Of a stretch of DNA of 64,000 nt, positions 24,285-64,000 are shown in pieces. The stretch is from an uncultured Chloroflexia bacterium. GTDB taxonomy: Bacteria > Chloroflexota > Limnocylindria > Limnocylindrales > CSP1-4. The notes beneath the pieces were generated by a model. It saw only the letters and a list, made by a program, of their open reading frames with translations. It had not been told where the DNA came from and did no database searches. The translations under genes and the position numbers were made by a program. The number at the start of each line of letters is the position of its first letter. The first letter of the stretch is position 1. The DNA is taken from assembly GCA_963712745.1 (NCBI GenBank), contig CAVQJC010000007.1, positions 13,110 to 77,109 of the forward strand. Direction: 5' to 3'.

Positions 24285-24381
24285 GCGTGTCGTCGGCCGG
24301 CCAGCGAGGCCGGCGCCTGACGACCATCCATCTCCTCCTCATCGACAGCCCGAGTCGATCCAGCACGGAGCAACACCCCCG

Positions 24382-25838: not shown

Positions 25839-25847
25839 CGAGGGCAG

Positions 25848-26870
25848 TTGGTCGTGACCACGACCGAACGACAGTCCGGTACCGAGATCGACGCCCTGCG
25901 CCCGCATGCCCACGGCGGGAATGCCCGCCACGGAGGGCGCTTCCCCAGCATCGTCGACGCCATCGGCTTCACGCCGCTGGTCGAGGTGGCCCTGATCTGT
26001 CCCAATCCCAACGTGAGGCTGTACGTCAAGCTCGAGTTCATGAACCCCACCGGGTCGGTCAAGGACCGCGTGGCCAAGTACCTGATGGAGGATCTCGAGG
26101 CCTCCGGCCGGCTGTCGCCGGACTCGATCATCATCGAGCCGACCAGCGGCAACACCGGCATCGGCCTGGCCATGATCGCGCGCCGCAAGGGCTATCGCGT
26201 GGCCGTGGTGGTGCCCGACAACGTGACCATGGAACGGCGCCAGCTACTGGCGCTGTTCGGGGCCGAGGTCATCGACTCGCCGGGCCACCTCGGATCGAAC
26301 GGTGCGGTGGCGCTGGCCAAGCACCTGGTGCAGAAGGATCCCCGCTTCGTGATGCCCTACCAGTACGGCAACCCGGCCAATCCTCGCGCCCACGAGGAGA
26401 CGACCGCCGAGGAGATCATCGCCGACTGTCCCGAGGTCGACGCCTTCGTGGCCGGCCTGGGCACGGGCGGCACGCTCATGGGCGTGGGCCGGCGACTGCG
26501 CCGTCACAACCCCGACGTGCGCGTGTACGCGGCCGAGCCGCTGCCTGGTGAGAGGGTGCAGGGACTGCGCTCGCTCGACGAAGGCTTCATCCCCGAGATC
26601 TTCGACCCCACCGGCATCGACGGCAAGTTCCTCGTCTCCAACACCGAGGCCATCGAGGCGGTACGCGAGCTGACCGAGAAGGAGGGTATCTTCGCCGGCG
26701 TCTCCTGTGGTGCGGTCATGGTGGCGGCCAAGCAGCTGGCCCGCGAGATGGAGCGCGGCACCATCGTGGCGTTGCTCGCCGACGGCGGCTGGAAGTACCT
26801 CTCCGAAGACATCTGGACCCGCGACCTCGAGGCCGACGAGGACGAGATCGACAGTCTCAACCTATGGTGA
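25848..26870 (+). CDS. cysM: PLP-dependent cysteine synthase, CysM type
   Basis: NPTGSVKDR, EPTSGNTG, GLGTGGT, ADGGWKYLS. Confidence 0.88.
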   Translation: MVVTTTERQSGTEIDALRPHAHGGNARHGGRFPSIVDAIGFTPLVEVALICPNPNVRLYVKLEFMNPTGSVKDRVAKYLMEDLEASGRLSPDSIIIEPTSGNTGIGLAMIARRKGYRVAVVVPDNVTMERRQLLALFGAEVIDSPGHLGSNGAVALAKHLVQKDPRFVMPYQYGNPANPRAHEETTAEEIIADCPEVDAFVAGLGTGGTLMGVGRRLRRHNPDVRVYAAEPLPGERVQGLRSLDEGFIPEIFDPTGIDGKFLVSNTEAIEAVRELTEKEGIFAGVSCGAVMVAAKQLAREMERGTIVALLADGGWKYLSEDIWTRDLEADEDEIDSLNLW

Positions 26871-27472
26871 GCGACGAGCGCGGGCCCAGCCGCGCCCCCG
26901 AGGTCCCGTCGTCGGCCGATGAGCCTGCGTCCGCGGGCGAGAGGGGAGTGGTGCCCGAGGTCGACGCCTGGCAGCGTGCCGCCGACAGCGGCGCGGCTGC
27001 CCACCAGCGTGCCGTCGGCGTCGGTGCCGGCCGCGGCGCCGGGCCACCGTGGGTGCCTGCGTCTGCGCGCATCCCCGCGCCCATCCGGGAGGAGGTCGTC
27101 GACTGGCTCCGCGCGGCCCTGCCCAACGAGGGCTGCGGCGTGCTCGTGGCAGAGCGCGTGGCCGAGGATGGCGGTGTGCCCTCGCGTTTCGTAGGCATGC
27201 GCAACGTCGCCGAGTCGCCCTTCCGCTACCTGATGGATCCCATCGAACAGCTGGAGATGCTCGAGGAGATCGACGAACGGGATGAGGTGGTCTGGGCCAT
27301 CGTCCACTCCCACGTGGCTTCGCCGCCCTATCCCTCACCGACCGACATCGGCCTGGCCGCCTTTCCTGAGGCCATCTACCTGCTCGCCTCGTTCGCGGGC
27401 GAAGCGCCGGAGATCCGCGCCTGGACCATCGTCGACGGGGCCGTCAACGAGGTCGTGCTCGAGCGCACCTGA
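26864..27472 (+). CDS. mec: JAMM/M67 metallopeptidase (Mec-like)
   Basis: PNEGCG...HSH-x7-S-x2-D JAMM motif. Confidence 0.85.
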   Translation: MVSDERGPSRAPEVPSSADEPASAGERGVVPEVDAWQRAADSGAAAHQRAVGVGAGRGAGPPWVPASARIPAPIREEVVDWLRAALPNEGCGVLVAERVAEDGGVPSRFVGMRNVAESPFRYLMDPIEQLEMLEEIDERDEVVWAIVHSHVASPPYPSPTDIGLAAFPEAIYLLASFAGEAPEIRAWTIVDGAVNEVVLERT

Positions 27473-49794: not shown

Positions 49795-49885
49795 CCTCGA
49801 TCGACAGCTGGCCCGCCCCCCGGGTCGTGGAGCGGCGGGCCGCTCCCTGGATGATGGCCAGGCTCCCCGGGATGGTGCCCGTCTC

Positions 49886-50179
49886 CTAGATGGTGGCCAG
49901 GTTGGAGGCAGCGCCAAGGCCGCCGATGAGGATGCCGAACACCAGCACCGTCGCCGCCACGCGCGGGCGGGAGCGGCTGACGATGAGGAAGGTGGCGGCC
50001 ACCAGCAGCACCGTCGCGAACTTGGCGATGGTCAGCAGGGCCAGGCCCCAGTCCTCCACGATGGTGGCCACCAGAGGGTTCAGCTCCGAGTCGAGGCCGT
50101 GGCGCGCGACCATCACCACGAAGGTGGTGTAGTCCGCGATGTGGGCCATGATGAGGATGGCGATGCCGGCAGCCGACAA
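49886..50179 (-). CDS. Small membrane protein (DUF5658-like)
   Basis: D..T...ELNPL...K motif; GGAGGG RBS before TTG. Confidence 0.65.
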   Translation of the reverse strand: MSAAGIAILIMAHIADYTTFVVMVARHGLDSELNPLVATIVEDWGLALLTIAKFATVLLVAATFLIVSRSRPRVAATVLVFGILIGGLGAASNLATI

Positions 50180-50467
50180 ATCTGTCCCTCCGCGCCCCTG
50201 GGGGCTGCGTTTCGCTCGCGACACGGGACCGGGCTCGCCACTGCTCAGCGTGATCCGGCTCGGCGACCGTCGGTGGATCACGCGTCTTCGCTTCCCGTCT
50301 TGGACTAGGCTCGGATGCTCGCTTCCGAGTCTATCGAGAAGCCATCAAGGATTCGTGACGGACGACTACATCAGAGCGCAGCGGACCGCACTTTGTGGTG
50401 CGTGCGGTCACCAACCCCTCGTGCTGCCCATCGGGCCGTGCCGCTGGCCCTGCCGGCGCTTGCCGTG

Positions 50468-50527
50468 GCCGTCAGCCGCTCGGCCTGGCCGTCAGGCGCT
50501 CGCTGTAGCCGTCAGCCGCTCGGCCTG
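50468..50527. repeat. 20 bp tandem repeat (~3 copies) at MarR 3' end
   Basis: GCCGTCAGCCGCTCGGCCTG at 50468 and 50508, with a degenerate middle copy. Confidence 0.7.
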
Positions 50528-51126
50528 TCGCCCTCCCAGGCGGCGTCCCGCAGGACCCGGCCGAGCAGGTCGGCGGCGTCCTCGAGCTGCGTCCGCTCTA
50601 CGCGCTCGAGATCGGAGATCGTCTCCGCCAGCGGCGCGATCTGGCGTGCCCGGCCGAGCTCCAGTTGCTCTATGCCCTTGGGCGTGGCCCGCAGCACGAT
50701 CGAGCGTCCGTCGTCGGGGTTCTTCTCACGTTCCACGAGCCCGTCGGCCTCCATGGCATGGATGAGGCGGGTCATGGTGGGCGGCCGGACGTGCTCGGCG
50801 GCAGCCAGGTCACCGAGCGTGCGCGGTCCGCCAAGCACCAACAGTGTCAGCGCCGACAACCGTGCCCGCGTCAGGCCCTCACCCGCGTCGACCCGGGAGA
50901 GGTGACGCTGCAGGACCGTTGACAGGCTGGCCAGGCGGGCGGCCAGTTCGGTGGCGTCGACCGAGCGGCGCCGAGGCTCCCCGCCGGTGTCGAGAGTCGG
51001 GCTCACGAGTTCGGTCGGCGCCAGACCTGGGATCGAGACCGAAGCTTCGGCCTCGGCCGTAGCCAGTCGCAGGGCCTTCTTGCGGCCCTTCTTGTCCTTG
51101 CCTTTGCCCTTGGACTTCTTGCCCAT
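50512..51126 (-). CDS. MarR family regulator with Lys-rich N-terminus
   Basis: LGDLAAAEHVRPPTMTRLI..MEADGLVER..PDDGRS. Confidence 0.88.
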   Translation of the reverse strand: MGKKSKGKGKDKKGRKKALRLATAEAEASVSIPGLAPTELVSPTLDTGGEPRRRSVDATELAARLASLSTVLQRHLSRVDAGEGLTRARLSALTLLVLGGPRTLGDLAAAEHVRPPTMTRLIHAMEADGLVEREKNPDDGRSIVLRATPKGIEQLELGRARQIAPLAETISDLERVERTQLEDAADLLGRVLRDAAWEGDRPSG

Positions 51127-51225
51127 CGGTGTCTCGTCGTGGCCCACGCTCGCTGATGGCAGTGGCAGGCAGGACTGCAGGACGCAATCGTAACGGCGCC
51201 GCGGCCCCGAGGCGGGCCACTCTGG

Positions 51226-51801
51226 TCAGTGTCGAGGGTGGCGGAAGCAGCTCACGAGATGGTCGTTGACGAGGCCGGTCGACTGCATGTAGGCGTAGAT
51301 GATGACCGGACCGACGAAGCCGAAGCCGCGCCCCTTGAGGTCCGCCGAGAGATCGTCCGCCAGTGGTGTCGAAGCAGGCACCTGCGCCATCGACTCGAAG
51401 CGGTTGACGATGGGTGCGCCGCCCACGAAACCCCAGAGGTAGGTGTCGAGACTGCCGGCCTCCTCGCGCAGCTGGAGCACGGCGCGCGCGTTGTCCCGGA
51501 ACGCACGCACCTTGGCCCGATTGCGGATGATGCGCCGGTCGGCCAGCAGGCGAGTCTGGCGCGCGTCGTCGTAGGCCGCCATGAGCTCGGCGTCGAAGCC
51601 GTCGTACGCGTCGCGATAGCCGTCGCGTCGCTTGAGGATGGTCGACCATGCGAGGCCTGCCTGTGCGCCCTCGAGACAGAGCATCTCGAAGAGTCGCCGC
51701 TCGTCGTGGAGCGGCAGACCCCATTCCTCGTCGTGATAGGTGACCATCAGCGGGTCGTCGCCCGCCCAATCGCAGCGGTGTCCCCCCGGCTGCCCGCTCA
51801 G
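51226..51801 (-). CDS. tag: DNA-3-methyladenine glycosylase I
   Basis: RCDW, YHDEEWG, LEGAQAGLAW, IIRNRAK, NDHLVSC; start probably CTG overlapping the upstream stop. Confidence 0.92.
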   Translation of the reverse strand: MSGQPGGHRCDWAGDDPLMVTYHDEEWGLPLHDERRLFEMLCLEGAQAGLAWSTILKRRDGYRDAYDGFDAELMAAYDDARQTRLLADRRIIRNRAKVRAFRDNARAVLQLREEAGSLDTYLWGFVGGAPIVNRFESMAQVPASTPLADDLSADLKGRGFGFVGPVIIYAYMQSTGLVNDHLVSCFRHPRH

Positions 51802-52559
51802 TAGATCCGGCGCACGTCCGCCGGCAGCTTGATCTCGAAGGCGGAGTCGAAGATGACGGGATCGATCTCGAGCGAAGTCACCTCGGCGTGACGGGTGACG
51901 GTGTCACCGATGCGCTCGATCAGCAGCAGCACGAAGCCACTGTCGCGGCCGATGCCCACATCGATCGAGCGATCGGGCCGGTCGACCAGCACCTTCGCGG
52001 AGCGCGGATGCCGGGCCCGCACGACGACGGCCTCGCGGTCGGCCACCGGCTGCACGCCGACCAGGGCGAGCGGTCCCGTCACGAGCACGTTGCGGAAGAG
52101 TCCGTGAGGATGGATGAAGGCGTCGGCGAGGCTGCCGTGGGGCAGCGCTGTGAGTGGCGCGTAACCCTGCGCGAACGGTGGCAGGCCGGGTTCGTCGGAG
52201 CCCTGCAACCTGGGCCGGGGCTTGCGCACGCTGACGATGCGGTTGCTGGCCTCGTAGGCGGTGATGGACTCTCCATCGCTGAGCCAGATGTCGTAGTCGC
52301 GGGTCAGAGGCTCCGAGCTGCGCTTGGTCGCGACGCGGGCGTGGCCGGGATGCTTGAGCTGGATCTCGTGGACGATGGTGTCGGCGCCCTTGGCCGTGAC
52401 CACGCGCTCCTCGATGGACATGCGCAGGGTCTTCACCCGCAGCTCGGACTCGCGTGCGAAGGAGAACAGCTCCTCGACGCTGGGCACGTCGTCGGCCATG
52501 GCCACGCGGACCGGGGCCGGCACGCTCGCTGCAGGACCCGCAGGGGTGAGGTCTGACAT
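51798..52559 (-). CDS. Hypothetical protein (LolA-like fold possible)
   Basis: IWLSDGESITAYE; C-terminal DSAFEIKLPADV. Confidence 0.6.
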   Translation of the reverse strand: MSDLTPAGPAASVPAPVRVAMADDVPSVEELFSFARESELRVKTLRMSIEERVVTAKGADTIVHEIQLKHPGHARVATKRSSEPLTRDYDIWLSDGESITAYEASNRIVSVRKPRPRLQGSDEPGLPPFAQGYAPLTALPHGSLADAFIHPHGLFRNVLVTGPLALVGVQPVADREAVVVRARHPRSAKVLVDRPDRSIDVGIGRDSGFVLLLIERIGDTVTRHAEVTSLEIDPVIFDSAFEIKLPADVRRIY

Positions 52560-52569
52560 CGGCCGGATG

Positions 52570-53256
52570 CTACCCGATGTGGCCGGTAGGCGGAAGGGCG
52601 CGGCGCACGGCGACGACCTCGATGAGGTGGAAGTGGTGGGGCTCGCCGAGGGCGGTCTCGCCGTCCTCCTCCTTCTCGGTCCAGTGCTCGATCTCGAATC
52701 CGTCGAGGTAGCGGCGCATTACCTCCGGGCTGGGGCAAGTCATCCCGGGTTCGCCCGCGGCGTCGTCCCGGTGGCCAAAGAGCATGCCGCTGAAGCGGCC
52801 GTCGATGCCGATGCCCCCCCGGATGCGCTCCCAGGCGGCGTCGTACTCGTCTGGCGGCAGGAAGGGCAGGATGAGGTTGGCGTTGACCAGGTCACACTGC
52901 GGGATTTCGAACTCGGCCAGGTCTGCAAGCTCCGTCTGCAGGCGGGGCAGGTCGTGCTCGGGAGTGAGGTGCCGCAGCGTGTTGAGGGCCTCGGGCGTCA
53001 TGTCCGTGGCCAGCACGCGCCAACCTCTGCGCAGCAGCTCGCGCGTGTCCCGGCCGGCGCCGCAGCCAAGGTCCACGGCGAAGCGGGGACCGTCCGCTGG
53101 ATGCTCTCCGAAGGCCTCGGCCGCCATCTTCGTCGTCGTCCACGACGGGCGCTCGGCTGTGACCTCGTAGTAGTCGGGCCAGTGCGTTGCGGACGCCCCG
53201 GCGCCGTTCGGGCGGGCCTGGGCCTCGGCGGGCCGGATCGTCGAGTGCTGGGTCAT
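52570..53256 (-). CDS. Class I SAM-dependent methyltransferase
   Basis: VDLGCGAGRD motif I. Confidence 0.88.
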   Translation of the reverse strand: MTQHSTIRPAEAQARPNGAGASATHWPDYYEVTAERPSWTTTKMAAEAFGEHPADGPRFAVDLGCGAGRDTRELLRRGWRVLATDMTPEALNTLRHLTPEHDLPRLQTELADLAEFEIPQCDLVNANLILPFLPPDEYDAAWERIRGGIGIDGRFSGMLFGHRDDAAGEPGMTCPSPEVMRRYLDGFEIEHWTEKEEDGETALGEPHHFHLIEVVAVRRALPPTGHIG

Positions 53257-53343
53257 GGCCGAGCCAGCCTAGCGCTATGCTCGGAAGCAGTGGCGTCGCC
53301 GACCCATGGATCCGACTCGTGGCGCCCGGAAGGAGCCCAATTC

Positions 53344-53973
53344 ATGCGCATTGCCGTGGTCAACGAGAGCAGCGCGGTCGACAAGCACCCCTTCATCATG
53401 TCTGCCCTGGCGGGCCGTGGCCACGACGTCGTCAACGCCGGCATGGCCGAGCGAGGCGAGGACCCGGAGCTGCTGTACATCCACACCGGGCTGATCTCGG
53501 CGCTGCTGCTGGCGGCAGACCGCGTGGACATGGTCATCGGCGGCTGCGGCACCGGGCAGGGCTACATGAACTCGGTGATGCAGTATCCGGGAGTCTCGTG
53601 TGGCCACCTGCTGACCTCGCTCGATGCGTTCCTGTTCGCGCGCATCAACGCGGGCAATGTCGTCTCGCTCGCGCTCAACCAGGGCTGGGGCTGGGCCGGT
53701 GACGAGAACCTGCGCCTGCTGTTCGACCAACTGTTCACCGACGAGCAGGGGTCGGGCTTCCCGCCGCATCGCGAGGAGCCTCAGCGCCAGTCACGTGAGG
53801 GTCTCCAGGTCGTCTCCGGGGCCACGCATCGCACCATGGCCGAGATCGTGGCGCGACTGCCCGACAAGGTCATCGCGCCGGCCATCACCCACCCCGCCGC
53901 GGCCGCGGTGCTGGACATCCCCACCATCGCCGATGTCGAGCTACGCGAGGCGCTGCAGGTGCGCCTGCCATAG
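53344..53973 (+). CDS. RpiB/LacA/LacB family sugar-phosphate isomerase
   Basis: GGCGTGQG, PGVSCG, INAGN, GWGWAG. Confidence 0.85.
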   Translation: MRIAVVNESSAVDKHPFIMSALAGRGHDVVNAGMAERGEDPELLYIHTGLISALLLAADRVDMVIGGCGTGQGYMNSVMQYPGVSCGHLLTSLDAFLFARINAGNVVSLALNQGWGWAGDENLRLLFDQLFTDEQGSGFPPHREEPQRQSREGLQVVSGATHRTMAEIVARLPDKVIAPAITHPAAAAVLDIPTIADVELREALQVRLP

Positions 53974-53984
53974 CGCCTCTGGCC

Positions 53985-54047
53985 GAATCGCCAGGCGTAC
54001 GATGTCTGGTCGTCGTCGCCATGGCGCAGGCAGCCGAGGCGGCGCGA
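53985..54047 (+). repeat. Array repeat R0 (terminal copy, divergent left half)
   Basis: GAATCGCCAggcgtacgatGTCTGGTCGTCGTCGCCATGGCgcaGGCAGCCGAGGCGGCGCGA. Confidence 0.85.
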
Positions 54048-54208
54048 GCAAATCAGCCGGTGGGCACGGCTGGTCGCCGACTCCTAGCTCTCGCCTACTC
54101 CTTGGTCTCGGCCCACGCTCCAGCCGGGTGCGCTTGCGCTGGCGCCGCGTATCTCTTCAACTCGCTCTGGGTTCGCCGTCCATCGAGCCGCCATCGACCG
54201 GTCGGTCA

Positions 54209-55108
54209 TCACTCCTCTGGATGGAGTTGGTAGACGAGGAACGTCTCGGTGAGCGGCAGGGTCGGGGGCTGCTCGAAGATGTCGAAGTGGTCGGCGTCTA
54301 TCTCGGCGTAGACGAACTCCCGGTCGACCTCGGCGAGGGCTGCCGCCAGGTTCCGGGACGCCTGAACGTCGACGTTGGTGTCGCGGGTGCCGTGGATGAT
54401 GAGGATGGGCACGGTCTCCGCATCGACGAGGTAGGCGGGCGAGACCGCACGCCACGCGGCGGGGTCATCCTCGTAGCTGGCGCCCAGCAGGCTCTCGTAG
54501 ACCGCCGTCTGCTCCGGGTACGGGTTGCCGATCGTGAGGTCGACGTCGCCCGAGACGCTGACGACGCAGGTGACGCGGCTCGAGATGCCCGCCATGTCAG
54601 GGTCACTCGTGTCGCGGGCATCGGTCATGCCGACCAGCGACGCGAGGTGGCCACCGGAGGAATGGCCGAGGGCGCAGATCCGGTCGGGGTCGACGCCGTA
54701 GTCCGCCGCGTGAGCGCGGATCCAGCGGACCGCTGCCTGGGCATCCTCGAGTTGTGCCGGCCATGGGTTCGTGCCCGTCGACGGATCGTGGAGGCGGTAG
54801 CCCGCCGCAAAGGCCACGTAGCCAGCCTCGGCCATCTGGCGTGCAGAGTCGAGGACCCACAGCGGATCCCCGATGTCGTATCCGCCGCCGGAGAAGAAGA
54901 CGACGGCGGGCCGTGGCGCGGTCCGAGGCTCTGGCTCGTAGGCATGGATAACCTGCTTTGGGTCTTCGCCGTACTCGAGGGACGTCGTGAGGCTCGGCCA
55001 CGCGCTCTGTTGGTTCGGCTCCTCCGACTGAGCCACGACCGCACTGCCCAGTCCGCTGAGCAGTGCCAAGATGACCGTCACCGACAGGGACAGTCGCAAC
55101 GTCCGCAT
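54209..55108 (-). CDS. Cassette 1: secreted alpha/beta hydrolase (esterase)
   Basis: Signal MRTLRLSLSVTVILALL; GHSSGG nucleophile, HGTRD, DADHF. Confidence 0.9.
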   Translation of the reverse strand: MRTLRLSLSVTVILALLSGLGSAVVAQSEEPNQQSAWPSLTTSLEYGEDPKQVIHAYEPEPRTAPRPAVVFFSGGGYDIGDPLWVLDSARQMAEAGYVAFAAGYRLHDPSTGTNPWPAQLEDAQAAVRWIRAHAADYGVDPDRICALGHSSGGHLASLVGMTDARDTSDPDMAGISSRVTCVVSVSGDVDLTIGNPYPEQTAVYESLLGASYEDDPAAWRAVSPAYLVDAETVPILIIHGTRDTNVDVQASRNLAAALAEVDREFVYAEIDADHFDIFEQPPTLPLTETFLVYQLHPEE

Positions 55109-55249
55109 GACATCCCCCTTTGCTGCGCGGGCCGGTTTCGCCAGTGGCTCGGCGCGGTCCTCGGCGGCCAGGATGTGGGCCGCGCGTCAGAGCCTCCCGC
55201 TACTGGTGATTCTCTCGCGGGCGTCTATCCGCTCCGCAGCCACTATCCG
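55109..55249 (-). promoter_or_regulatory. Conserved cassette leader L1
   Basis: Homologous to five other leaders; ends in GGGGG RBS. Confidence 0.8.
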
Positions 55250-55295
55250 GAATCGCCATGAATAGCGGGTTATGTCTGGTCGTCGCCGCCCTGGC
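55250..55295 (+). repeat. Array repeat R1
   Basis: GAATCGCCATGAATAGCGGGTTATGTCTGGTCGTCGCCGCCCTGGC. Confidence 0.95.
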
Positions 55296-55364
55296 GTCAG
55301 GCTGCTGGGCCGTCCCGGCCCTCGACTGCCGAGCGTCGCAGGCAGCGGAGGTGGCGCGAGGGGT

Positions 55365-55886
55365 CTACTCGGCAGGTAGTCCTGGCATCTCGCCCGAGAC
55401 GATGACGCCGTTCCACGAGTCCAATCCGCGGAAGCCGAACTCCGGATCGGCATAGAGGATGGCCGTGAGGCCGCCGTATCCACCGGCCCCGCTGAGTACG
55501 AGTTGCTCGATATCGATCCCCGGATCTCCGTCGATGAAGACCCTGGTGCCGTTGCCCGACCACGACCCTCCTTCGTTGGCGATCTCCACCCTCGAGGAGA
55601 TCAGGCCGAAGCCGTCGTACGCCCGCTCAGCCATGACGACGGAGCCGTCGCCGGTGAGCCGTGGATCGTCCATCACGAGACCGAAGCACCAGGTCCAGCT
55701 GGCCGTGCCGTCGTCGAGTTCGGTGAAATCCTCCTCCAGCTCGCACGGCACGCTCGCGCCGCCAATCGGACTCATACCCCCGCTCACGACGACGGCTTCA
55801 TCGTCCTGCGCTGCGACACTGACCGCTGAGCCCGCCAGCTGGCCGATGGTGAGGAGCGTGATGATGCCGATCCTGATCGTTCCCAT
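55365..55886 (-). CDS. Cassette 2: secreted hypothetical protein (DPRL/GxYxGL family)
   Basis: Signal peptide ending AAQ; DPRLTG, GSWSG, GAGGYGGL. Confidence 0.8.
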   Translation of the reverse strand: MGTIRIGIITLLTIGQLAGSAVSVAAQDDEAVVVSGGMSPIGGASVPCELEEDFTELDDGTASWTWCFGLVMDDPRLTGDGSVVMAERAYDGFGLISSRVEIANEGGSWSGNGTRVFIDGDPGIDIEQLVLSGAGGYGGLTAILYADPEFGFRGLDSWNGVIVSGEMPGLPAE

Positions 55887-55996
55887 GGTCTCTCCCTCGA
55901 TACTCACGCTGGCGAGTCGATCCCGCCTGTACCAGGTAGACGATTCTCGAGGCGCAGGCGTCCCACGAGCCGTTGCTGCAACGCCGCCCCATGCGA

Positions 55997-56042
55997 GAAT
56001 CGCCATGAATAGCGGGTTTGGTCTGGTCATCGCCGCCATGGC
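55997..56042 (+). repeat. Array repeat R2
   Basis: GAATCGCCATGAATAGCGGGTTTGGTCTGGTCATCGCCGCCATGGC. Confidence 0.95.
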
Positions 56043-56095
56043 CGCGCACGCCACGGGCGCCACCATGGCGACGCCAGCCGAGGCGGCGCGATGGG

Positions 56096-56608
56096 TTAGT
56101 CGGTGGGAAGCGGCAGCGGTGGCGGGTCACCGGCGTAGACGATGCCCTCGACAGTCCCGGGTTCGCCGAAGTCGGCCACGGCGCGACCGACGAAGACGAG
56201 GCCGTCGTATGCATCGGTCCCGCTGTACACGACGTAGCTGTTGGCTCGTTGCTCGGGGTCGTGGGTGCCCGCATAGGCGCCCACCCACGTGCCATCGGGA
56301 CCAGCGATTTCTTGGGTGCCCCAGTAGGTGCACGGCCATTCGCTGAAGCAGTCCTCGTTGTAGACCTTCGTGGCGACACCGCTCAGTCGGGGATCGGACA
56401 TCTCCGAGGTGCACACGAGGCCCATGCCACGGTAGCTCTTCACCTCACCTTCGGTGGTGACCTCAGGGCCTTGTTCGACGATGCAGTCGACATCAGTCCC
56501 GGTCACCCAGATGGCTGCCTCCTCGTCCTGCGCCAGGACCGCTCCGCTCACATCAGCGGCCAGCGCCAAGATGACCGTCACCGCCAGGGACAGTCGCAAC
56601 GTACGCAT
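56096..56608 (-). CDS. Cassette 3: secreted hypothetical protein (DPRL/GxYxGL family)
   Basis: Signal MRTLRLSLAVTVILAL; DPRLSG, GTWVG, GTDAYDGL. Confidence 0.82.
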   Translation of the reverse strand: MRTLRLSLAVTVILALAADVSGAVLAQDEEAAIWVTGTDVDCIVEQGPEVTTEGEVKSYRGMGLVCTSEMSDPRLSGVATKVYNEDCFSEWPCTYWGTQEIAGPDGTWVGAYAGTHDPEQRANSYVVYSGTDAYDGLVFVGRAVADFGEPGTVEGIVYAGDPPPLPLPTD

Positions 56609-56738
56609 GTCATTCCCCCTCACGCGCGGGTCGGGTTCGCCAGTGGCTCAGCGCGGCCCCGGCGGCCATAGTCAGGGACCTGCGCGTCACAGCCTCCCAC
56701 TACGGACGATTCTCTCGCGGGCGTCCATCGCCTCGCTG
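56609..56738 (-). promoter_or_regulatory. Conserved cassette leader L3
   Basis: + strand GGGTTCGCCAGTGGCTC...GCCTCCCACTAC...GATTCTCTCGCGGGCGTCC. Confidence 0.8.
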
Positions 56739-56785
56739 GTATCGCCATGAAGAGCGGGTCTTGATCTGGTCGTCGCTGCCATGGC
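56739..56785 (+). repeat. Array repeat R3
   Basis: GTATCGCCATGAAGAGCGGGTCTTGATCTGGTCGTCGCTGCCATGGC. Confidence 0.92.
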
Positions 56786-56812
56786 GCAGACAGCCGAGGT
56801 GGCGCGATGGGG

Positions 56813-57928
56813 TTACTCGGCGGGCGGCTCCACGGGGTCGGGCATCGGCGCCACCAGCTCGCTGGGCACGATCATACCCCACGAACTCATGCTGAGGCGG
56901 TCGGCGGACTCGTGAAGGAAGAGGGTCAGGCCGTCATAGCCGGCCTCGCCCGTCATCTTAGTCATGCTCGCGATCCCCCCGACCTGGTCGGAGCTAGCCG
57001 CGATGATCTGCGATGAGCCCGACCAGGCGCCGTCGTCATTGACGAGCCGTGCCGTGATCGACCAGTTCTGCACTTGGGTGTGTTCGGATCCGAACCCGGT
57101 CCGGTTCTGCCACGTCGTCATCAGCCCGGATGCTCGCGGGTCGGTCGCTGTGATCCGGTCCACCTGCACCACCCCGCGCGACTCGGTCACCGAACCGTCC
57201 GCGCTCTCGTTGTCGGTGCCCCAGTCCGGCTCTTCGGCCTGCTCGGACGTGAAGACGAAGGCCGCCGGTGCCATCGGGTCCGCCGGTCCCTCAGCGGACG
57301 AGGACGCGATGGCCTCGGGATCGGGTGCCATCTGCATCAGGAACCCTTCTCCGGGCACGGCCTCAGCCGGCTCGGGGAAACCAGGAACCTCACCCTCGAA
57401 GATCCAGCCGTCGTACGCGACATCCCAGGGTCCGTGGGCATCCACGTCGGGCGTACCGCGCAGGAACGCGTGCAGGCCGTCGTAGGCACCCTCCCCCACC
57501 AGTTGGTAGTAGCTGTCGCGATCGTCAGGCGACTCGAAGGCCCGACCCGTTCCGCGCCAGATCCCTTCGTCATCGACGAGCAGGTGGCTCGTCTCGAGCG
57601 TCATCACGCCGGCCTCGGGGTCGTCGCCGTAGATGGCGAGGTTGAGCCGGATCCAGTGCTCGCTCGGGAGGCGTGGGTCGCTCCACTCCACGCGCTGTCC
57701 GAAGGTGTGGCCCTGTTCGCGCAGGACGCCCGCCTCGTCACTGGACGTGACGGTGTCTTCCGCTTGCTGCTCGACGTACTCGCCCGTCTCGGTGGACAGC
57801 TCTAGGACCGTGCCGGTCACATAGGCGGGCGTGGATGGTTCCTCGCTCTGGGCGGCCGCCTCCATCGCTGTGCCGACGAGCATCGCCGCGATGACCGGCC
57901 CCACCAGGAATGCTGGTGCCGTACGCAT
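56813..57928 (-). CDS. Cassette 4: secreted protein with two DPRL/GxYxGL domains
   Basis: Signal peptide; SDPRL..GIWRG..GEGAYDGL and TDPRA..GAWSG..GEAGYDGL. Confidence 0.82.
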   Translation of the reverse strand: MRTAPAFLVGPVIAAMLVGTAMEAAAQSEEPSTPAYVTGTVLELSTETGEYVEQQAEDTVTSSDEAGVLREQGHTFGQRVEWSDPRLPSEHWIRLNLAIYGDDPEAGVMTLETSHLLVDDEGIWRGTGRAFESPDDRDSYYQLVGEGAYDGLHAFLRGTPDVDAHGPWDVAYDGWIFEGEVPGFPEPAEAVPGEGFLMQMAPDPEAIASSSAEGPADPMAPAAFVFTSEQAEEPDWGTDNESADGSVTESRGVVQVDRITATDPRASGLMTTWQNRTGFGSEHTQVQNWSITARLVNDDGAWSGSSQIIAASSDQVGGIASMTKMTGEAGYDGLTLFLHESADRLSMSSWGMIVPSELVAPMPDPVEPPAE

Positions 57929-58058
57929 GACATCCCCTTTGCATGCGCGGGTCGGGTTCGCCAGTGGCTCGGCGCGGTCCAGGCGGCCATTGCTGGGGCC
58001 GCGTCTCATCGCCTCCCGCTACGAACGATTCTCTCGCGGACGTCCAACAGCGATCCCA
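57929..58058 (-). promoter_or_regulatory. Conserved cassette leader L4
   Basis: Homologous to L1 and L3. Confidence 0.8.
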
Positions 58059-58104
58059 GAATCGCCATGAATAGCGGGTCATGTCTGGTCGTCGCCGCCA
58101 TGGC
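58059..58104 (+). repeat. Array repeat R4
   Basis: GAATCGCCATGAATAGCGGGTCATGTCTGGTCGTCGCCGCCATGGC. Confidence 0.95.
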
Positions 58105-58184
58105 ACGCGCATACGGCCAGGCCGACCTGCGACCAACCGGGGCGTGAGGCGCCAAGGGCGTCGCGGCGATGTTCGGCAACCGTC

Positions 58185-58379
58185 CTACGACGCTGGGACC
58201 TTCTCGATCACGAGAAGGAAGTCCACGCGGGGCATCCACAGGAACCCTATGGTGACGTTCGGGACGATGCTCACGACCTCTCCCTCCAGGTCGTTGAGGA
58301 AGCGCTCGAGGTTCGCCTCATCCTTCGTCATCGAGACATCGATGCGATGCACTCGGTACCGGTGGCCGGTGGCTGCCAT
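58185..58379 (-). CDS. Cassette 5: small hypothetical protein (64 aa)
   Basis: MAATGHRYRVHRIDV...LEGEVVSIVPNV...VDFLLVIEK; GAGGGGG RBS. Confidence 0.75.
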   Translation of the reverse strand: MAATGHRYRVHRIDVSMTKDEANLERFLNDLEGEVVSIVPNVTIGFLWMPRVDFLLVIEKVPAS

Positions 58380-58524
58380 GTGGATGCCCCCTCGTATGCG
58401 CGGGCTGGGTTCGCCAGTGGTTCGACGCGGCCCAAGGCGGCCATCGTCGACGGACCGCGCGTCAGCGCCTCCCGCTGCGTCGATTCTCTCGCGGGCGTCC
58501 ATGGGCTCGCGATGGCGCTCGGCG
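58380..58524 (-). promoter_or_regulatory. Conserved cassette leader L5
   Basis: Homologous to L1, L3 and L4. Confidence 0.8.
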
Positions 58525-58570
58525 AGATCGCCATGTATAGAGGGTCATGGCTGGTCGTCGCTGCCATGGT
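58525..58570 (+). repeat. Array repeat R5
   Basis: AGATCGCCATGTATAGAGGGTCATGGCTGGTCGTCGCTGCCATGGT. Confidence 0.9.
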
Positions 58571-58698
58571 GATGCACACGGGTCGGCGTCCAGCCCATGA
58601 CCTGAGGAACGGCCCGCCGTCTGAACGGCCCGACGTCTGACCGGCGCTGGACGATCGCAGCATCCAACGAGCGGGCGGCGTCCAGATGGAGGTGACTC

Positions 58699-59142
58699 TT
58701 GGCCGCCAGCGGCCGCATCACGGTTCACCTCGATCGCCCAGCCGAGGATGTCTTCGACTACGTCAGCAACGTCGAGAACAACCCACGATGGCGCACCGCG
58801 GTCATCGAGACGAGATGGCTCGATCCGGGACCCAACAGGCCCGGGCGTCGCGGCGAGCAGACATCGAGGATCCTCGGTCGCCGGCACACCGTCACGGCGG
58901 AGGTCGTCGACTGGGACCCGCCTCGACACGTCAGCTGGGCGACGACGGCTGGCGGCGCGGATGTCCGCACCCACTGTCGCGTCGATGCGGACGGCGACAG
59001 GTGCACCCTCACGCTCGAGTCGGAAGGGCAGTTCACCGGCGTGTGGCGACTCTTGACCCCGGTCGCGGCGGCGATGCTGCGCCGGCAGTCGATAGCTGAC
59101 ATCGAGCGCCTCCGGGCGGTCCTGGGGGACCGCCCAGGCTGA
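58699..59142 (+). CDS. Cassette 6: SRPBCC family protein
   Basis: DRPAEDVFDYVSNVENNPRW; GGAGGTGA RBS before TTG. Confidence 0.85.
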   Translation: MAASGRITVHLDRPAEDVFDYVSNVENNPRWRTAVIETRWLDPGPNRPGRRGEQTSRILGRRHTVTAEVVDWDPPRHVSWATTAGGADVRTHCRVDADGDRCTLTLESEGQFTGVWRLLTPVAAAMLRRQSIADIERLRAVLGDRPG

Positions 59143-59191
59143 CCCTGGGCCCGGCCATCTGCCGCCTCTGACGTAGCGATGGCGCTCTGCG

Positions 59192-59236
59192 GAACCGCCA
59201 TGGATGGCGGGTGGACCTGGTCGTCGCCGCCATGGC
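59192..59236 (+). repeat. Array repeat R6
   Basis: GAACCGCCATGGATGGCGGGTGGACCTGGTCGTCGCCGCCATGGC. Confidence 0.9.
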
Positions 59237-59319
59237 TGTGGGTTACAGCGGTCGGCGTCCGCTCCAGGGCGAACCTCGGGAGTCCCGCCGCCACAGTCGA
59301 CAAGACCACGCGGACCCTG

Positions 59320-59892
59320 TCACCTCTCCGCCGCTTCCGGCGAGGTTGGTTTCTCGAACCACACCAATCGATAGCGCATGACCTTGGGCTCGTCCTCCGC
59401 TTCGATGATGTCCTCGAACAGTTCATCGATGCGATGTTGCAGCTGCTGCTGGACGGTCTCGGGTTCCGCCTGGACCGTCTCTGCCTCGACGAGGTGCGCC
59501 GCCTTTACGCGCTCGATCATCGCGTTCCCGAGCGCCAGAGCGACGTCGCGGGCGGTCGTCGCGTCGTCGTCGCGAACCTCGATCCGCACCGTCAATGCAT
59601 CAGCGCGACTCGTCGCCGAGATCCGCTCGAGCAGACTCTCGGGGCGTTCGTCGAGGCCGAGCTTCTCGATGACCCGGGCAGCGACGGGCCGGGACCGGGC
59701 CAGCTGCGCGTAGCGCTCGGCACGCGCCTCTGCCTCGCGGAAGTCGGCGACGCTCGGAGCGGGCCCTGGGTCGACGCGCAGCAACGCCGTAGCCTCGTGG
59801 CCCAGCTGGGCGCGCGGCCCGCATGTGAGCACCATCGCAGCCAGGAGGGCCACGGGGGCCCCGGCGGCAGCGAGCCTGTGCGGTACGGACAT
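59320..59892 (-). CDS. Cassette 7: Wzz/YveK-like periplasmic-domain protein
   Basis: ATALLRV...YAQLARSRPVAARVIEKLGL...IEVRDDD..ARDVA resembles a chain-length regulator domain; lacks the C-terminal TM. Confidence 0.6.
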   Translation of the reverse strand: MSVPHRLAAAGAPVALLAAMVLTCGPRAQLGHEATALLRVDPGPAPSVADFREAEARAERYAQLARSRPVAARVIEKLGLDERPESLLERISATSRADALTVRIEVRDDDATTARDVALALGNAMIERVKAAHLVEAETVQAEPETVQQQLQHRIDELFEDIIEAEDEPKVMRYRLVWFEKPTSPEAAER

Positions 59893-60046
59893 CGGCTCCC
59901 CTTGGTGGCAGCATGCGGATACGCGGCTGCCTTCATGCTACGCCGCGGCTACGGGCACGGCGGCAGGCGTGGAGCATGCACCCGTTGTGCTCTTGGACGG
60001 TGACCGCGATGGGGCCCGGCTGGAACAGGCCAGCCTTGACACAGAC

Positions 60047-60092
60047 GAATCGCCATGCATAGCGGGTGATGTCTGGTCGTCGCCGCCATGGT
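60047..60092 (+). repeat. Array repeat R7
   Basis: GAATCGCCATGCATAGCGGGTGATGTCTGGTCGTCGCCGCCATGGT. Confidence 0.95.
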
Positions 60093-60118
60093 GCAGGCAG
60101 CCGAGAAGCGCGATCGGG

Positions 60119-60991
60119 TCAGTCGGCAGGCGTGGCCTCAGTGGGCCCATCGACATGCGTCAGCGTGGCGCTCAGCATGATCGCCAGCTCGTCCGAATCG
60201 TTTCGGATCACATGGACCGTGTCGTCCGCGAAGGATTCCGACGTGAGCTGGTCGGCGTCGGGCGCAATGAACCTGACCGAGTTGGTCAGCGCCGCGTCGA
60301 TCTCGGATGGGGCAGCGAAACCGCTCTCCAAGCGACCTGCTTCGAGCACCAGGAGGCGCAGCAACCCGGCCTCGTCAGACCCAAGCACGAGCTGGCCGCC
60401 GGGGTCGAACGTGAGTCGCTCGAACGTGACCGCGACCGGTGTCGCGAACAGGAGATCCACGGTCTCGGGTGGCAGCACGTTGAGGTCGAGGAGTCGCCAG
60501 TCCATGCCGGTGGGCAGGACCGGTGGCTCCGCGGGGTCATCACTGTCGCCGACCGACAGGGCATACGACACGAACGTCTCGGGCCCCTCGTTCGTGAAGC
60601 TCCTCCCGGCCCCACCGTTGTAGAAGAGCACGAGATCCCCGGCGTCCGCGCTGGCAGTCGTCCCGGCGGGAAGGTCCTCGGTCGCCCCGTCCGCTCGCCA
60701 GATCACCGCCCGGTCATTGTCCGTCCACGTGATCGAGCCGCGCTCGACGTACTCCAGGCTGGCCCATTCATGGGGCTGGGCCGAGCCGACTTCGCCGGTC
60801 ACGCCCGGCTCGATGCTGGTCCGAGCAATCCCGAGACGGACGGCGTCCTCGGGGATGGCCTCGCCAGGGATGACGCCGTGGTCGGCCAAGACCTTGACGC
60901 TGGCGCGGGGCACCTCTTCCTGTGCCAGCGCCGCGCTGCCCAGCAGCACCAGGATGACCGTCCCTGCCAGGGACAAGCGCAACGTACGCAT
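60119..60991 (-). CDS. Cassette 8: secreted tandem cupin-like protein
   Basis: Signal MRTLRLSLAGTVILVLL; IEPG..EYVERGSI..AGDLVLF..FTNEG and FDPG..LEAGRL..IRNDSDE. Confidence 0.75.
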   Translation of the reverse strand: MRTLRLSLAGTVILVLLGSAALAQEEVPRASVKVLADHGVIPGEAIPEDAVRLGIARTSIEPGVTGEVGSAQPHEWASLEYVERGSITWTDNDRAVIWRADGATEDLPAGTTASADAGDLVLFYNGGAGRSFTNEGPETFVSYALSVGDSDDPAEPPVLPTGMDWRLLDLNVLPPETVDLLFATPVAVTFERLTFDPGGQLVLGSDEAGLLRLLVLEAGRLESGFAAPSEIDAALTNSVRFIAPDADQLTSESFADDTVHVIRNDSDELAIMLSATLTHVDGPTEATPAD

Positions 60992-61130
60992 GCTGTTCCC
61001 CCTCGCTCACGCGGGCTGGGCCCGCCAGTCGCTCGGCACGGTCCAGGCGGCCACTGCTGGGACCGCGCATCATCGCCTCCCGCTACATGTGATTCTCGCG
61101 GCCGTCTATCGGCTCCGCAGCCACTCTCCA
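60992..61130 (-). promoter_or_regulatory. Conserved cassette leader L8
   Basis: Homologous leader; shares the GTCTATC.GCTCCGCAGCCACT segment with L1. Confidence 0.8.
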
Positions 61131-61176
61131 GAATCGCCATGTAGAGAGGGTTTGGTCTGGTCGTCGCCGCCATGGC
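61131..61176 (+). repeat. Array repeat R8
   Basis: GAATCGCCATGTAGAGAGGGTTTGGTCTGGTCGTCGCCGCCATGGC. Confidence 0.93.
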
Positions 61177-61230
61177 TAGGCACACCACAGGCAGCCGAGG
61201 CGGCGCGATGGATTACTCGGTGAGATCGCT

Positions 61231-62125
61231 TCAGGCACCCTTCTCCACCGGGTTCGAGGATCACTCGTCCACTCCTCCAGCGCTCCGTCGTACATGGCCA
61301 CGTCCTCGAAGCCCATGAGGTGCAGGACCAGCGCCGCGAAGGCGCCGTAGTAGCCGCCACCGCAGTAGGTGATGGTCGACTGCGCGGATCGAGCCCGGTC
61401 TCCTCCAGCATGACGGCGAGGTCCCCGGCCCCCTTGACCACGCCCGTGACGTCGAGCAGCTCGGGTGCCGGGAGGCTCACCGCACTGGGGATGTGCTCGT
61501 AGTCGTAGCTGCCGGAGGGTAGGGCGTCCACGATGTTGACGGCAGGATCGTCGATGGCGGCCCTGACCTCGTCCATCGCCACATACCACTCCGGTCGCAC
61601 CTCGGCCGTGAAGACGGCCGGCCCGATGACCGGCGCCTCCGTCTCGAGTGGCAGGCCCTCGGCCTCCCAGGCATCGATGCCGCCATCGAGGAGCTTGGCG
61701 TCCTCGTGGCCGTAGTACCGCAGCGCCCACCACACACGGGCTCCCCACAGCCCACCCTCATCGTCGTAGATGACAACGGTCGTGTCGTCCCCGATGCCCT
61801 TCTCGCCCATGAGCTCGGCGAACGGCTCGGCGTCCATGATGTCGGAGGGGCAACAGAGCTCATCGAAGATGTCGACGAGGACGGCTCCGGGGATGTGCCC
61901 TTGCGAGTAGAGGATCGGCCCATCCGCGCGAGCATCCACGATCCGCACGGACGGATCATCCAGGTGCTCAGCCAGCCGATCCGAGTCCACCAGGACCTCG
62001 GGATGGACGTATTCCACTGGGAGCTCGAAGGCGCCGCTCGACGAAGCCTCCTGCCCGACGGCCGGTACGCCCCCAAGCGCCAGGCACAGCACGACGGCCG
62101 CTCCCGCGGTCCAAAGCCTACGCAT
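61231..62125 (-). CDS. Cassette 9: secreted double-domain sulfurtransferase (rhodanese), frameshifted near 61385 and 61258
   Basis: GHIPGAV, RVWWALRYYGH, LDGG, HIPSA; ITYCGGG and YDGALEEW in the shifted frame. Confidence 0.85.
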
Positions 62126-62271
62126 CGCGATACCCCCTCTCCTGCATGCGGGCCGGGTTCGCCAGTGGCTCTGCACGGTCCAGGCGGCCATGATCAGCAG
62201 GCCGTGCTTCGGAGCCGCCCGCTACACCGATTCTCCCGCTGGCGTCCATCAAGTCCGCCTGAGCAGCGCAG
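62126..62271 (-). promoter_or_regulatory. Conserved cassette leader L9
   Basis: + strand GGGTTCGCCAGTGGCTC...CAGGCGGCCA...CCCGCTAC..GATTCTC. Confidence 0.8.
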
Positions 62272-62317
62272 GAATCGCCATGAATAGCGGGTTTGGCCTG
62301 GTCGCCGCCGCCATGGC
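62272..62317 (+). repeat. Array repeat R9
   Basis: GAATCGCCATGAATAGCGGGTTTGGCCTGGTCGCCGCCGCCATGGC. Confidence 0.93.
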
Positions 62318-62485
62318 TATCGCGGAGGCGGCCGAGGCGGCGCGGCGCAACCTATCCCCCGCTGGCGTCGGGGTGTAGACTGCCGCGCCTTGGGGGCCGT
62401 CACACGAGGAAGGTCAGCTCGCCACCATCTACTCGCGAGCCACATTCGGACCGAGCGGTCCGGCCAGGGTCCAGGGAGGTTCTCC

Positions 62486-62903
62486 ATGTCTGACAACAAG
62501 GCCACGATGCTTCGCCTCTACGACGAGGTCTTCAGCCAGGGCGATTTCGACCTCGGCGACGAGCTCCTGGCGGACGACTTCGTCGAGCACGAGGAGCTTC
62601 CGCCCGGGATCCGCCGGGCAAGGCGGCGCCGCAGTACTCATGACCATGATGCGTGCCGCCTTCCCCGACTTCCACGCGGCGGCCGAGGAGCTGCTCGAGG
62701 ACGGGGACAAGGTGATCGCCCGGGCACGCTTCTCCGGCACCGACCAAGGCGAGTTCATGGGCATCGCCGCGACCGGCAAGAGGTTCGACATCGCCGTCAT
62801 CGACATCATCGAGTTCCGCGATGGCAAGGCGATCGCCCACTGGGGGGTCATGGACATGGCCGGGATGATGGAGCAGCTCGGCATCGGCGGGCCGCCCGCG
62901 TAG
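62486..62903 (+). CDS. Cassette 10: SnoaL-like ester cyclase (frameshift ~62610-62640)
   Basis: LYDEVFSQGD..DELLADDFVEH, then AAFPD..EDGDKV..GEFMGIAATGK..FRDGK..HW..D. Confidence 0.85.
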
Positions 62904-62946
62904 GCCTCCCCACTGGGCCGCCCAATCGCCGGCGAGCGCTTCCCCA

Positions 62947-62995
62947 GGATCGCCACCGTGAATGATGGGTTGGGTCTGGTCGTCGCCGCCATGGC
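62947..62995 (+). repeat. Array repeat R10
   Basis: GGATCGCCACCGTGAATGATGGGTTGGGTCTGGTCGTCGCCGCCATGGC. Confidence 0.88.
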
Positions 62996-63274
62996 CACAC
63001 ACGCTGCCGGTCCGTCCGGCCCTGACTCCGCTGACCCGGGTGCGGAGGATGGAGGGCGTGATGCGCATGTGAGTCGGACACTGTCAGGGTTGTTGGTCCT
63101 GGGTGCAGGCGACCTGGGGGCGACATAGCCGGGATCTGCGGCCGGAAACCCAGTGAGGGCCAGAAGATGTCGCAGTGATTCCGATTCGCTCATCCCTGGA
63201 CCGTGGGTCCGGAAAGTGGGCGCTCCGGTGACCTTCAGCCCTGTGTCGATCTCGCCCTGCCGGCCGACCTTGTC

Positions 63275-63756
63275 ATGATGACAAGCCGCCTCAGTCGCAA
63301 GGAGAGCGTCGGCCTCTGGCTGTACCGCAACCTCGACAAGCGCTTCAGTCGGCCTCAGCGTGGCTCTCTTTCGTCGCACCAGGGTGGGTTGACCGAGCGC
63401 GTGAACGTCGATGCCCTCGTCCTGACGACGGTCGGACGGAAGAGCGGCCGCCGCCGCAGGTCCTGCTGCAGTACTTCCGTGATGGTGACGACATGCTGCT
63501 GGTGGCGGCCGACGGTGAAGCAGTTCGCCATCCCGGCTGGTTCGACAACCTCATGGCGGTACGAGACGCCAGGGGCTGAGATGCGTGGCCAGGCCGGGTT
63601 GGTGCATGCGACGAAGCTGTACCAAACGGAAGCCGAGGACGCTGGCCAGCGTTTCCTCGCCGCTCTCCTGACTACGAGCGATACCTTCGCGCTACCGAGC
63701 GCAGTATCCCGATCGTCCGCCTGCACCCGGCATATGCCGCGACCTCAGATGTCTGA
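63275..63756 (+). pseudogene. Cassette 11: deazaflavin (F420)-dependent nitroreductase family, multiply frameshifted
   Basis: LVLTTVGRKSG, DGDDMLLVAADG..HPGWFDNL and RSIPIVRL lie in different frames. Confidence 0.75.
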
Positions 63757-63862
63757 TCGTGACGCGGCGATGCTGGTCGAAGCTCGCCGAGCCCTCGAGC
63801 TGAGCCGGACGAAGCGTCCGCCGCCATGTTGCCGCCCGTCATGCCGAGGTGGGGGTTACCCG

Positions 63863-63908
63863 GTTACGCCATGAATAGCGGGTGCGGTCTGGTCGTCGCC
63901 GCCACAGC
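63863..63908 (+). repeat. Array repeat R11
   Basis: GTTACGCCATGAATAGCGGGTGCGGTCTGGTCGTCGCCGCCACAGC. Confidence 0.92.
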
Positions 63909-64000
63909 CACGCACGCCGCTGGGCCGTCTGTGCCCTGAGCCTGGCGCGAGCGGGGGTGACGGATCGGGGTGGAGGATCGCTGATGCCGCACTCGGCCAA

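Follow-up and report, generated by a model that had tools for sequence, protein, structure and literature searches.

Leaders of the c-di-GMP-II riboswitch clan head repeat-bounded gene cassettes in an uncultured Chloroflexia bacterium

The stretch of DNA considered here, referred to as the window, is the whole of 64,000 nucleotides (nt) analysed from an uncultured Chloroflexia bacterium (assembly GCA_963712745.1, contig CAVQJC010000007.1, positions 13,110 to 77,109). The last part of the window, beginning at about 53.9 kb, is a run of short genes, most of them on the minus strand, with a conserved intergenic repeat (direct-repeat families D1, D2 and D4) between them that bounds single-gene cassettes. 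The subject of this work is a leader sequence that precedes several of these cassettes. Direct-repeat families D3, D7 and D9, together with an Rfam scan, place it directly 5' of six minus-strand genes, with starts from 55108 to 62125 (Table 1). A first-pass annotation had described the leader before cassettes 1, 3, 4, 5, 8 and 9, with a remnant before cassette 2, and this is borne out by the repeat search, by Rfam and by the sequence; the sense-strand consensus given there is also correct. The leader is independent of the signal peptide, as had been proposed: it precedes a non-secreted gene in cassette 5, because the product encoded after the aptamer at 58395-58481, of 64 amino acids (aa), has no hydrophobic N-terminus.

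What is this leader? The whole window was scanned against Rfam at gathering thresholds, and the direct-repeat search was run separately. The scan returned seven matches and no other family, and all seven lie on the minus strand and span the full model; six are the leaders just named, and the seventh (50217-50304) falls beyond the range covered by the first-pass annotation. Each reaches the gathering score of RF03169 (c-di-GMP-II-GAG) or RF03170 (c-di-GMP-II-GCG), both of clan CL00127 and named after the second messenger cyclic diguanosine monophosphate (c-di-GMP). Scores are 43.5-65.5 bits and E-values 1e-5 to 3e-11, by which chance is excluded. As in the two Rfam families, the copies have a full-length P1-P2-P3 architecture with the conserved blocks GGGAGGC, GAGCCA and UGGCG. 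The same scan found no Rfam match in the cassette 2 leader (55887-55965). The two families were reportedly defined by Weinberg and colleagues in PNAS in 2017. The leader is a real, structured, regulatory element of a known riboswitch clan, not a new RNA. The first-pass annotation had claimed a new cis-regulatory RNA and had named an Rfam match beforehand as grounds for abandoning the idea; with the matches to RF03169 and RF03170 that false lead is removed. Its broader description, a riboswitch-like RNA joined to a separable promoter-like block, was right in kind. The leader is ordinary in kind and unusual in copy number and pocket; these two features, the pocket being of an A-C-G type, and the embedding in repeat-bounded cassettes with swappable promoter blocks are what is noteworthy.

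Table 1. Positions in the window of aptamers, promoter-like blocks and downstream genes
Feature	Position	Strand	Remarks
Aptamer, cassette 1	55122..55206	-	RF03169 65.5 bits, E 2.6e-11; pocket A-A-G (parent-like)
Aptamer, cassette 3	56620..56706	-	RF03169 53.9 bits; pocket A-C-G
Aptamer, cassette 4	57940..58025	-	RF03170 64.5 bits; pocket A-C-G
Aptamer, cassette 5	58395..58481	-	RF03169 43.5 bits (cut-off 40); RF03170 46.6, under cut-off 47.9; pocket A-C-A
Aptamer, cassette 8	61005..61089	-	RF03170 61.5 bits; pocket G-C-A
Aptamer, cassette 9	62143..62228	-	RF03170 56.5 bits; pocket A-C-G
Seventh aptamer, most divergent, outside the array	50217..50304	-	RF03170 65.5 bits; pocket G-C-G; 5' of DUF5658-like gene
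Aptamer-less remnant before cassette 2 (ATG 55886)	55887..55965	-	Promoter-like block 55942-55965 and ribosome-binding site retained; 55-nt leader
Promoter-like block TAGACGCCCGCGAGAGAATCA	55207..55227	-	Repeat family D9; 5' of cassette 1 aptamer
Equivalent promoter-like blocks	56707-56727, 58026-58046, 58482-58502, 61090-61109, 62229-62249	-	Repeat family D9
Ribosome-binding site AAGGGGGA, ATG 55108, gene 1	54209..55121	-	Secreted BD-FAE/alpha-beta hydrolase, 299 aa; PF20434 1.4e-41
Ribosome-binding site, ATG 56608, gene 3	56096..56619	-	Secreted, 170 aa, no family
Ribosome-binding site, ATG 57928, gene 4	56813..57939	-	Secreted, 371 aa, no family
Ribosome-binding site, ATG 58379, gene 5	58185..58394	-	64 aa, no signal peptide
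Ribosome-binding site, ATG 60991, gene 8	60119..61004	-	Secreted, 290 aa
Ribosome-binding site, ATG 62125, gene 9	61106..62142	-	Secreted rhodanese-domain protein, 339 aa; PF00581 9e-25
Gene after seventh aptamer, membrane protein	49886-50179	-	DUF5658-like; Pfam 24.5 bits, under cut-off 25.2

The genome holds many more copies of the family. With E<=1e-3 as the limit, RF03170 matches the assembly (4.22 Mb on 20 contigs, 84.6% complete, 5% contamination) at 47 places, 32 of which score over its cut-off; for RF03169 the corresponding figures are 45 and 37. Two pairs of copies are near-identical (contigs C2/C20, 99.2% over 1565 nt; contigs C7/C17, 99.0% over 1215 nt) and could represent assembly redundancy. 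Under stricter filters, and with many of the genomes incomplete, 1 to 31 matches were present in 23 of 24 genomes sampled from the same genus and none in 16 sister-family genomes of about 1.1 Mb each. Copy number across the genus spans 1 to 47 per genome.

Support for the fold comes from an alignment of 41 near-full-length genome copies (39 distinct rows), made with MAFFT and fitted to no model. Six of the 47 matches, truncated or with large indels, were left out (C10:171855, C10:168118, C17:38849, C8:17716, C17:168518 and C20:50835). The Rfam fold pairs 81.7% of the cells of this alignment. Both sides have changed in 12 pairs (e.g. G-C to A-U in eight rows): six of the ten pairs of P1 and six of the nine of P3. 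The observed covariation score, 0.163, is reached by 0 of 500 shuffles, whose mean is 0.134; slid controls give 0.03-0.07. RNAalifold recovers core P1 and P3 unaided, and P2 is not recovered. P2 is paired in 97.4% of cells. The four core pairs of the pseudoknot CGCC/GGCG form in 38-39 of the 39 rows, a fifth pair in just 10. The supported fold is P1-P2-P3 with a pseudoknot between the P3 loop CGCC and GGCG. The stems drawn in the first-pass annotation, GCGGYC/GGCCGC and CGCC/GGCG, are wrong as a structure: 88.5% of their cells pair and the one-sided C to U variation is as described, but shuffles are not exceeded. These helices mix the P3 5' strand with the pseudoknot loop, and the P3 3' strand with the pseudoknot partner; their origin lies in the loop GGCCGCC, which can pair with the P3 5' strand as well as with its true partner GGCG. 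They were dropped for the Rfam fold, with no compensatory, double-sided change among the aligned copies.

The position of the aptamer relative to the gene is close to fixed. Measured from the 3' end of the model, 41 of the 47 copies have a Shine-Dalgarno (SD)-like G-run beginning at -4 to +8 nt (four of the others have no match to this rule and in two the run is further away), and the start codon lies 5-20 nt from the model end. A pattern scan found no terminator-like site behind the aptamers of the window. Because the SD sequence adjoins the aptamer and no such site follows, control is probably exerted at translation initiation. Secondary structure predictions add a recurrent hairpin, in which the stretch immediately 3' of core P1, as a rule GCGCAUG, would pair with the start-codon region (CAUGCGN); in cassette 4, for instance, the start codon lies within the predicted hairpin GCGCAUG/CAUGCGU. 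In the 40 copies folded, the AUG of the native sequence is unpaired with a mean probability of 0.37; the value is 0.72 if the P1-3'/linker segment is blocked and 0.58 if it is shuffled. The AUG falls more than 0.15 below the shuffle mean in 20 of the 40 and above it in three; 11 copies are in the lowest 5% of shuffles and one in the top 5%. These modelled values fit an ON switch and give that direction partial support.

About 40 nt of the 5' coding sequence (signal peptide MRTLRLSL...; repeat family D6, copies at 55061-55128, 56561-56628, 57881-57948 and 60944-61011) are 62-82% conserved at the nucleotide level across otherwise unrelated genes, and the CAUGCG round the start codon joins the predicted hairpin.

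Upstream of the aptamer, a hexamer of the GAGAAT, GATAAT or GACAAT type (GAnAAT) is present in 29 of the 47 copies, in flanks that diverge. From its end to the first G of core P1 there are 7-8 nt in 26 of these 29 and 10 nt in the other three, a spacing as expected of a -10 element if transcription starts at core P1 or just before it. A start there would account for the poor conservation of the outer Rfam P1 pairs in this genome, of which the outermost three are unpaired in 21-30 of the 39 alignment rows. Seven further copies have TTGAMC...TCATAC upstream, and 11 have neither motif. The blocks appear to be exchangeable. When cassette 1 is compared with its twin on C17, the aptamer's 5' two thirds hold nearly all mismatches and the two cassettes have upstream blocks of different types, which points to a recombination joint inside the riboswitch of cassette 1. 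The proposal of a 'portable' promoter is thereby supported.

About 47 genes, mostly for secreted proteins, make up the regulon of the switch in this genome. A signal-peptide-like N-terminus was found by a crude rule in at least 29 of the 46 downstream open reading frames (ORFs) of 60 aa or more, and the count is a lower bound because some reading frames were wrongly chosen. A Pfam scan of the 47 downstream ORFs gives no family for most. Named domains include rhodanese, Peripla_BP_4, META, BNR/sortilin, GNAT, deaminase and a 4Fe-4S protein, as well as SRPBCC (three ORFs), S-adenosylmethionine (SAM) methyltransferase (four ORFs) and BD-FAE esterase (two ORFs, both near-identical C7/C17 copies of the cassette 1 gene). 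A Chloroflexota lineage, apparently of soil or sediment, has an unusually large, mostly secreted and mostly uncharacterised protein set under one riboswitch of the second-messenger type. A comparable arrangement is described in Clostridium difficile 630 (12 class I and 4 class II aptamers; PMC11477304), where one second-messenger aptamer class likewise stands before many unlinked genes for surface or exterior proteins; there are about three times as many copies here (47, in a 4.2-Mb assembly that is 84.6% complete), and in a different phylum.

What does the aptamer bind? The pocket of the class II aptamer in structure 3Q3Z has A13 as its floor and A61 as its ceiling, with the first P2 pair against the ligand backbone; G-alpha is read by A69 and G-beta by G73, while A70 intercalates (PMC13715770). 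These positions were mapped by aligning the Rfam consensus lines with 3Q3Z numbering, whereby A69, A70 and G73 become alignment positions 70, 71 and 74, or positions 9, 10 and 13 of the 14-nt strand that follows P2 and whose first A is A61. The consensus of this strand is AGUgGUGCAACCGg in the parent family RF01786 (from the match of locus L118, 81.8 bits), AgUGGCGAGACCGa in the GAG model and AgUGGCGAGCCCGa in the GCG model; the family names GAG and GCG presumably denote the letters at the three pocket positions. Among the 41 aligned copies the letters are A-C-G in 35, A-A-G in two, and G-C-G, G-C-A, A-C-A and A-C-C in one each. The G-alpha-reading position is A in 39 of 41 and the G-beta-reading position is G in 38. 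The variant-defining G at the first position, by which RF03169 and RF03170 are set apart, thus occurs in just two of 41 copies, and within the window the G-C-G pocket is confined to 50217-50304. The seven copies of the window comprise three of A-C-G and one each of G-C-G, G-C-A, A-A-G and A-C-A. In relatives, 11 copies were recognised by regular expression among the 11 best-scoring loci, 10 with A-C-G and one with A-C-A. The standard pocket of the lineage thus retains both guanine-reading bases of the parent, with no A69G change, and differs in the intercalating base alone. An A-C-G pocket of this kind matches neither the parent class (A-A-G) nor the two catalogued variants (G first). A pattern scan of metagenomes gave at least 80 loci, an arbitrary sample and not a frequency; among the matches listed, 22 were aptamer-like by a strict upstream-motif filter, with G-A-G in 13, A-A-G in five, A-C-G in three and one false. 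Natural A-A-G, A-C-G and G-C-G copies in a single genome offer direct material on how the class II pocket tunes ligand choice.

The leader is most readily understood as a riboswitch of the c-di-GMP class II fold, which in our judgement quite probably binds c-di-GMP or a closely related cyclic dinucleotide and controls translation initiation. The grounds are the family score, the helix covariation, the fixed geometry of promoter block, ribosome-binding site and start codon, and the eight GGDEF-domain genes encoded in the assembly; what we infer is which ligand binds, that binding turns the gene on, and where transcription starts. c-di-GMP would be the likeliest ligand because both guanine-reading bases are kept and GGDEF genes are present. 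Each leader would have its own promoter-like block for transcription, with a probable start at core P1 or slightly upstream of it, and its aptamer ends 0-8 nt before the ribosome-binding site of the single downstream gene. In about half of the copies the P1-3' strand would pair with the start codon, and a P1 stabilised by ligand would free the AUG and turn the gene on. Canonical c-di-GMP-II aptamers (RF01786; structure 3Q3Z; those of C. difficile, PMC11477304) have the same fold, read G-alpha with A and G-beta with G, and likewise stand before genes for surface or secreted proteins. In C. difficile the characterised class II examples turn surface-protein genes on (PMC11477304), mostly at the level of transcription, whereas the platform here appears translational, without a terminator.

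Several results weigh against this reading. With regard to the fold, P2 is invariant and hence uninformative for covariation, and the pseudoknot is nearly invariant, with no double-sided change. With regard to the pocket, the intercalating A70 of canonical aptamers is C in 39 of the 41 copies, and the parent RF01786 gives 37 matches at the same places in the genome, the best at 49.5 bits and none over the cut-off of 53.5. As to transcription, a strict pattern scan for a canonical sigma-70 promoter found 0 sites in 49800-64000, and the promoter is read solely from the GAnAAT hexamer and its spacing. One metatranscriptome run (X20; an RNA library that may contain DNA) was compared with the window along with three DNA runs. 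Over the aptamer core its contigs are short aptamer-like pieces with unlike flanks and no more than 90-95% likeness, and they are no proof of transcription; two near-identical pieces from the same run lie elsewhere (58563-58754 and 59217-59519). As to the switch, the start-codon hairpin is absent from the other half of the copies, cassette 1 included, and overlaps core P1 by only about 2 nt, and its Wilcoxon p of 2.5e-4 overstates the case because the copies are kin. The ribosome-binding site has a mean unpaired probability of 0.58 when free and 0.66 with P1/P2 forced, rising in 14 of 39 copies and falling in one, and in local folds its openness exceeds that of shuffles in 12 of 43 copies and falls short of it in four. 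Masking of the ribosome-binding site, considered as the switch, is supported by neither fold test.

Could the same fold, in the same role, respond to something other than c-di-GMP? The A-C-G pocket would then be a specificity variant for another cyclic dinucleotide or a metabolite. The C at position 70 and the failure of all copies to reach the parent cut-off can be taken in this sense, as can the higher score of every copy with the variant models than with the parent. A single-nucleotide change lets a c-di-GMP-II aptamer bind isomers of cyclic GMP-AMP (cGAMP; PMC13715770), and a literature search found no ligand reported for RF03169 or RF03170, though a supplement or subscription paper may contain one. 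The choice of best model, however, reflects the GC-rich scaffold and not the pocket, because the GAG model is also the best-scoring one (65.9 bits) for L105, a metagenome copy of high GC content that has the parent pocket. The guanine-reading A69 and G73 are kept, GGDEF genes are present, and A-A-G and A-C-G copies occupy interchangeable cassette contexts, which suggests that A70C is neutral. A ligand other than c-di-GMP is held to be unlikely. An OFF switch is regarded as similarly improbable. In that case the compact pseudoknot formed with ligand near the ribosome-binding site would hinder the 30S subunit, and ligand would lower translation. The aptamer does lie very near the ribosome-binding site, the folds give no clear ligand-dependent unmasking of that site, and half of the copies have no start-codon hairpin. 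Set against this are the characterised class II examples, which are ON (PMC11477304), the pairing of the P1-3'/linker segment with the AUG beyond that of shuffles, and the opening of the ribosome-binding site on forcing P1/P2, in many more copies than it closes.

Or might the element sense no ligand at all, being a repeated DNA module (one resembling a miniature inverted-repeat transposable element, MITE, or a recombination site of the cassette array), or a protein-binding or stability element that resembles a riboswitch? It does occur in arrays of repeat-bounded cassettes, its copies are related by descent, and there is the recombination joint inside the cassette 1 aptamer relative to its 99% twin on C17. 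This is nonetheless very improbable in view of the E-values, down to about 1e-11 against a curated structural model, and the compensatory changes that keep P1 and P3. In 41 of 47 copies the element keeps the same strand and the same spacing to ribosome-binding site and start codon, which argues against random insertion; most copies lie outside the three arrays known in the genome, and the family is present in nearly all of the genomes sampled from the genus. A bolder extension of the riboswitch reading can be put forward as a speculation, and a doubtful one: one Chloroflexota genus might have fixed A-C-G as a third pocket type of the c-di-GMP-II fold in nature, maybe with its own ligand preference, the switch might be the master control of a secretome of about 50 genes, and the aptamer might serve as a homology joint by which promoters and genes are reshuffled between arrays that have no integrase.

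The intergenic repeat occurs in 12 copies in the window (54004-63907) and in 35 across three arrays in the genome, the other two being at C10 37595-52693 and C17 157969-175927. Its core is GTCTGGTCGTCGCCGCCATGG on the plus strand, and it extends to about 130 nt with two upstream hairpin-like blocks. An exact 21-mer of the core was found in 42 stretches of public records, mostly metagenome-assembled genomes titled Chloroflexia, Chloroflexota or Limnocylindrales. The arrays have cassettes in common, with insertions and deletions between arrays. Cassette 1 recurs (window 53988-55201 vs C17 173587-174800, 99.0% identity over 1215 nt), as does the next cassette (window 55345-56042 vs C17 171219-171919, 98%), and C17 has one extra cassette between the two.

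Single-gene units between conserved repeats of about 50-130 nt, with cassettes common to several arrays, are likewise characteristic of integron arrays and of attC clusters without integrase; unlike integron cassettes, those described here carry their own promoter-like block and riboswitch. The best match to the integron integrase model TIGR02249 scores 84.9 bits against a cut-off of 265, in an assembly that is incomplete and in which the array of the window runs off the contig end, so that absence is unproven. No tyrosine recombinase was found within about 200 kb of the C17 array, matches to PF00589 being limited to C4, C12 and C17 (at 376 kb). An alignment of the 35 repeats has no conserved GTTRRRY core, and the repeat folds weakly as single-stranded DNA (z -1.0 to -2.1). 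With no IntI found, no nearby recombinase and only weak repeat folds, the array is not classed as a classical integron.

In the three DNA runs, from sediment or soil, the summed contig depth over aptamer bins (e.g. 57701-57977) is 10 to 100 times that of neighbouring gene bodies. Many contigs join the aptamer of one cassette to other flanks, and the aptamer is common to many loci or organisms in those samples.

Near the contig end, two plus-strand cassettes (62460-62903 and 63203-63874) look split into overlapping or adjacent ORFs (62390-62965 and 62640-62903, and 63203-63874) with no Pfam match at 1e-5; these may be frameshifted genes. Outside the array, the region 20928-27469 of the window carries ordinary chromosomal genes, among them those for an Rrf2 regulator, a ThiF-rhodanese protein, a pyridoxal phosphate (PLP) enzyme and a JAB domain protein, together with a suf-like cluster (ABC ATPase, class V aminotransferase and NifU-like protein).

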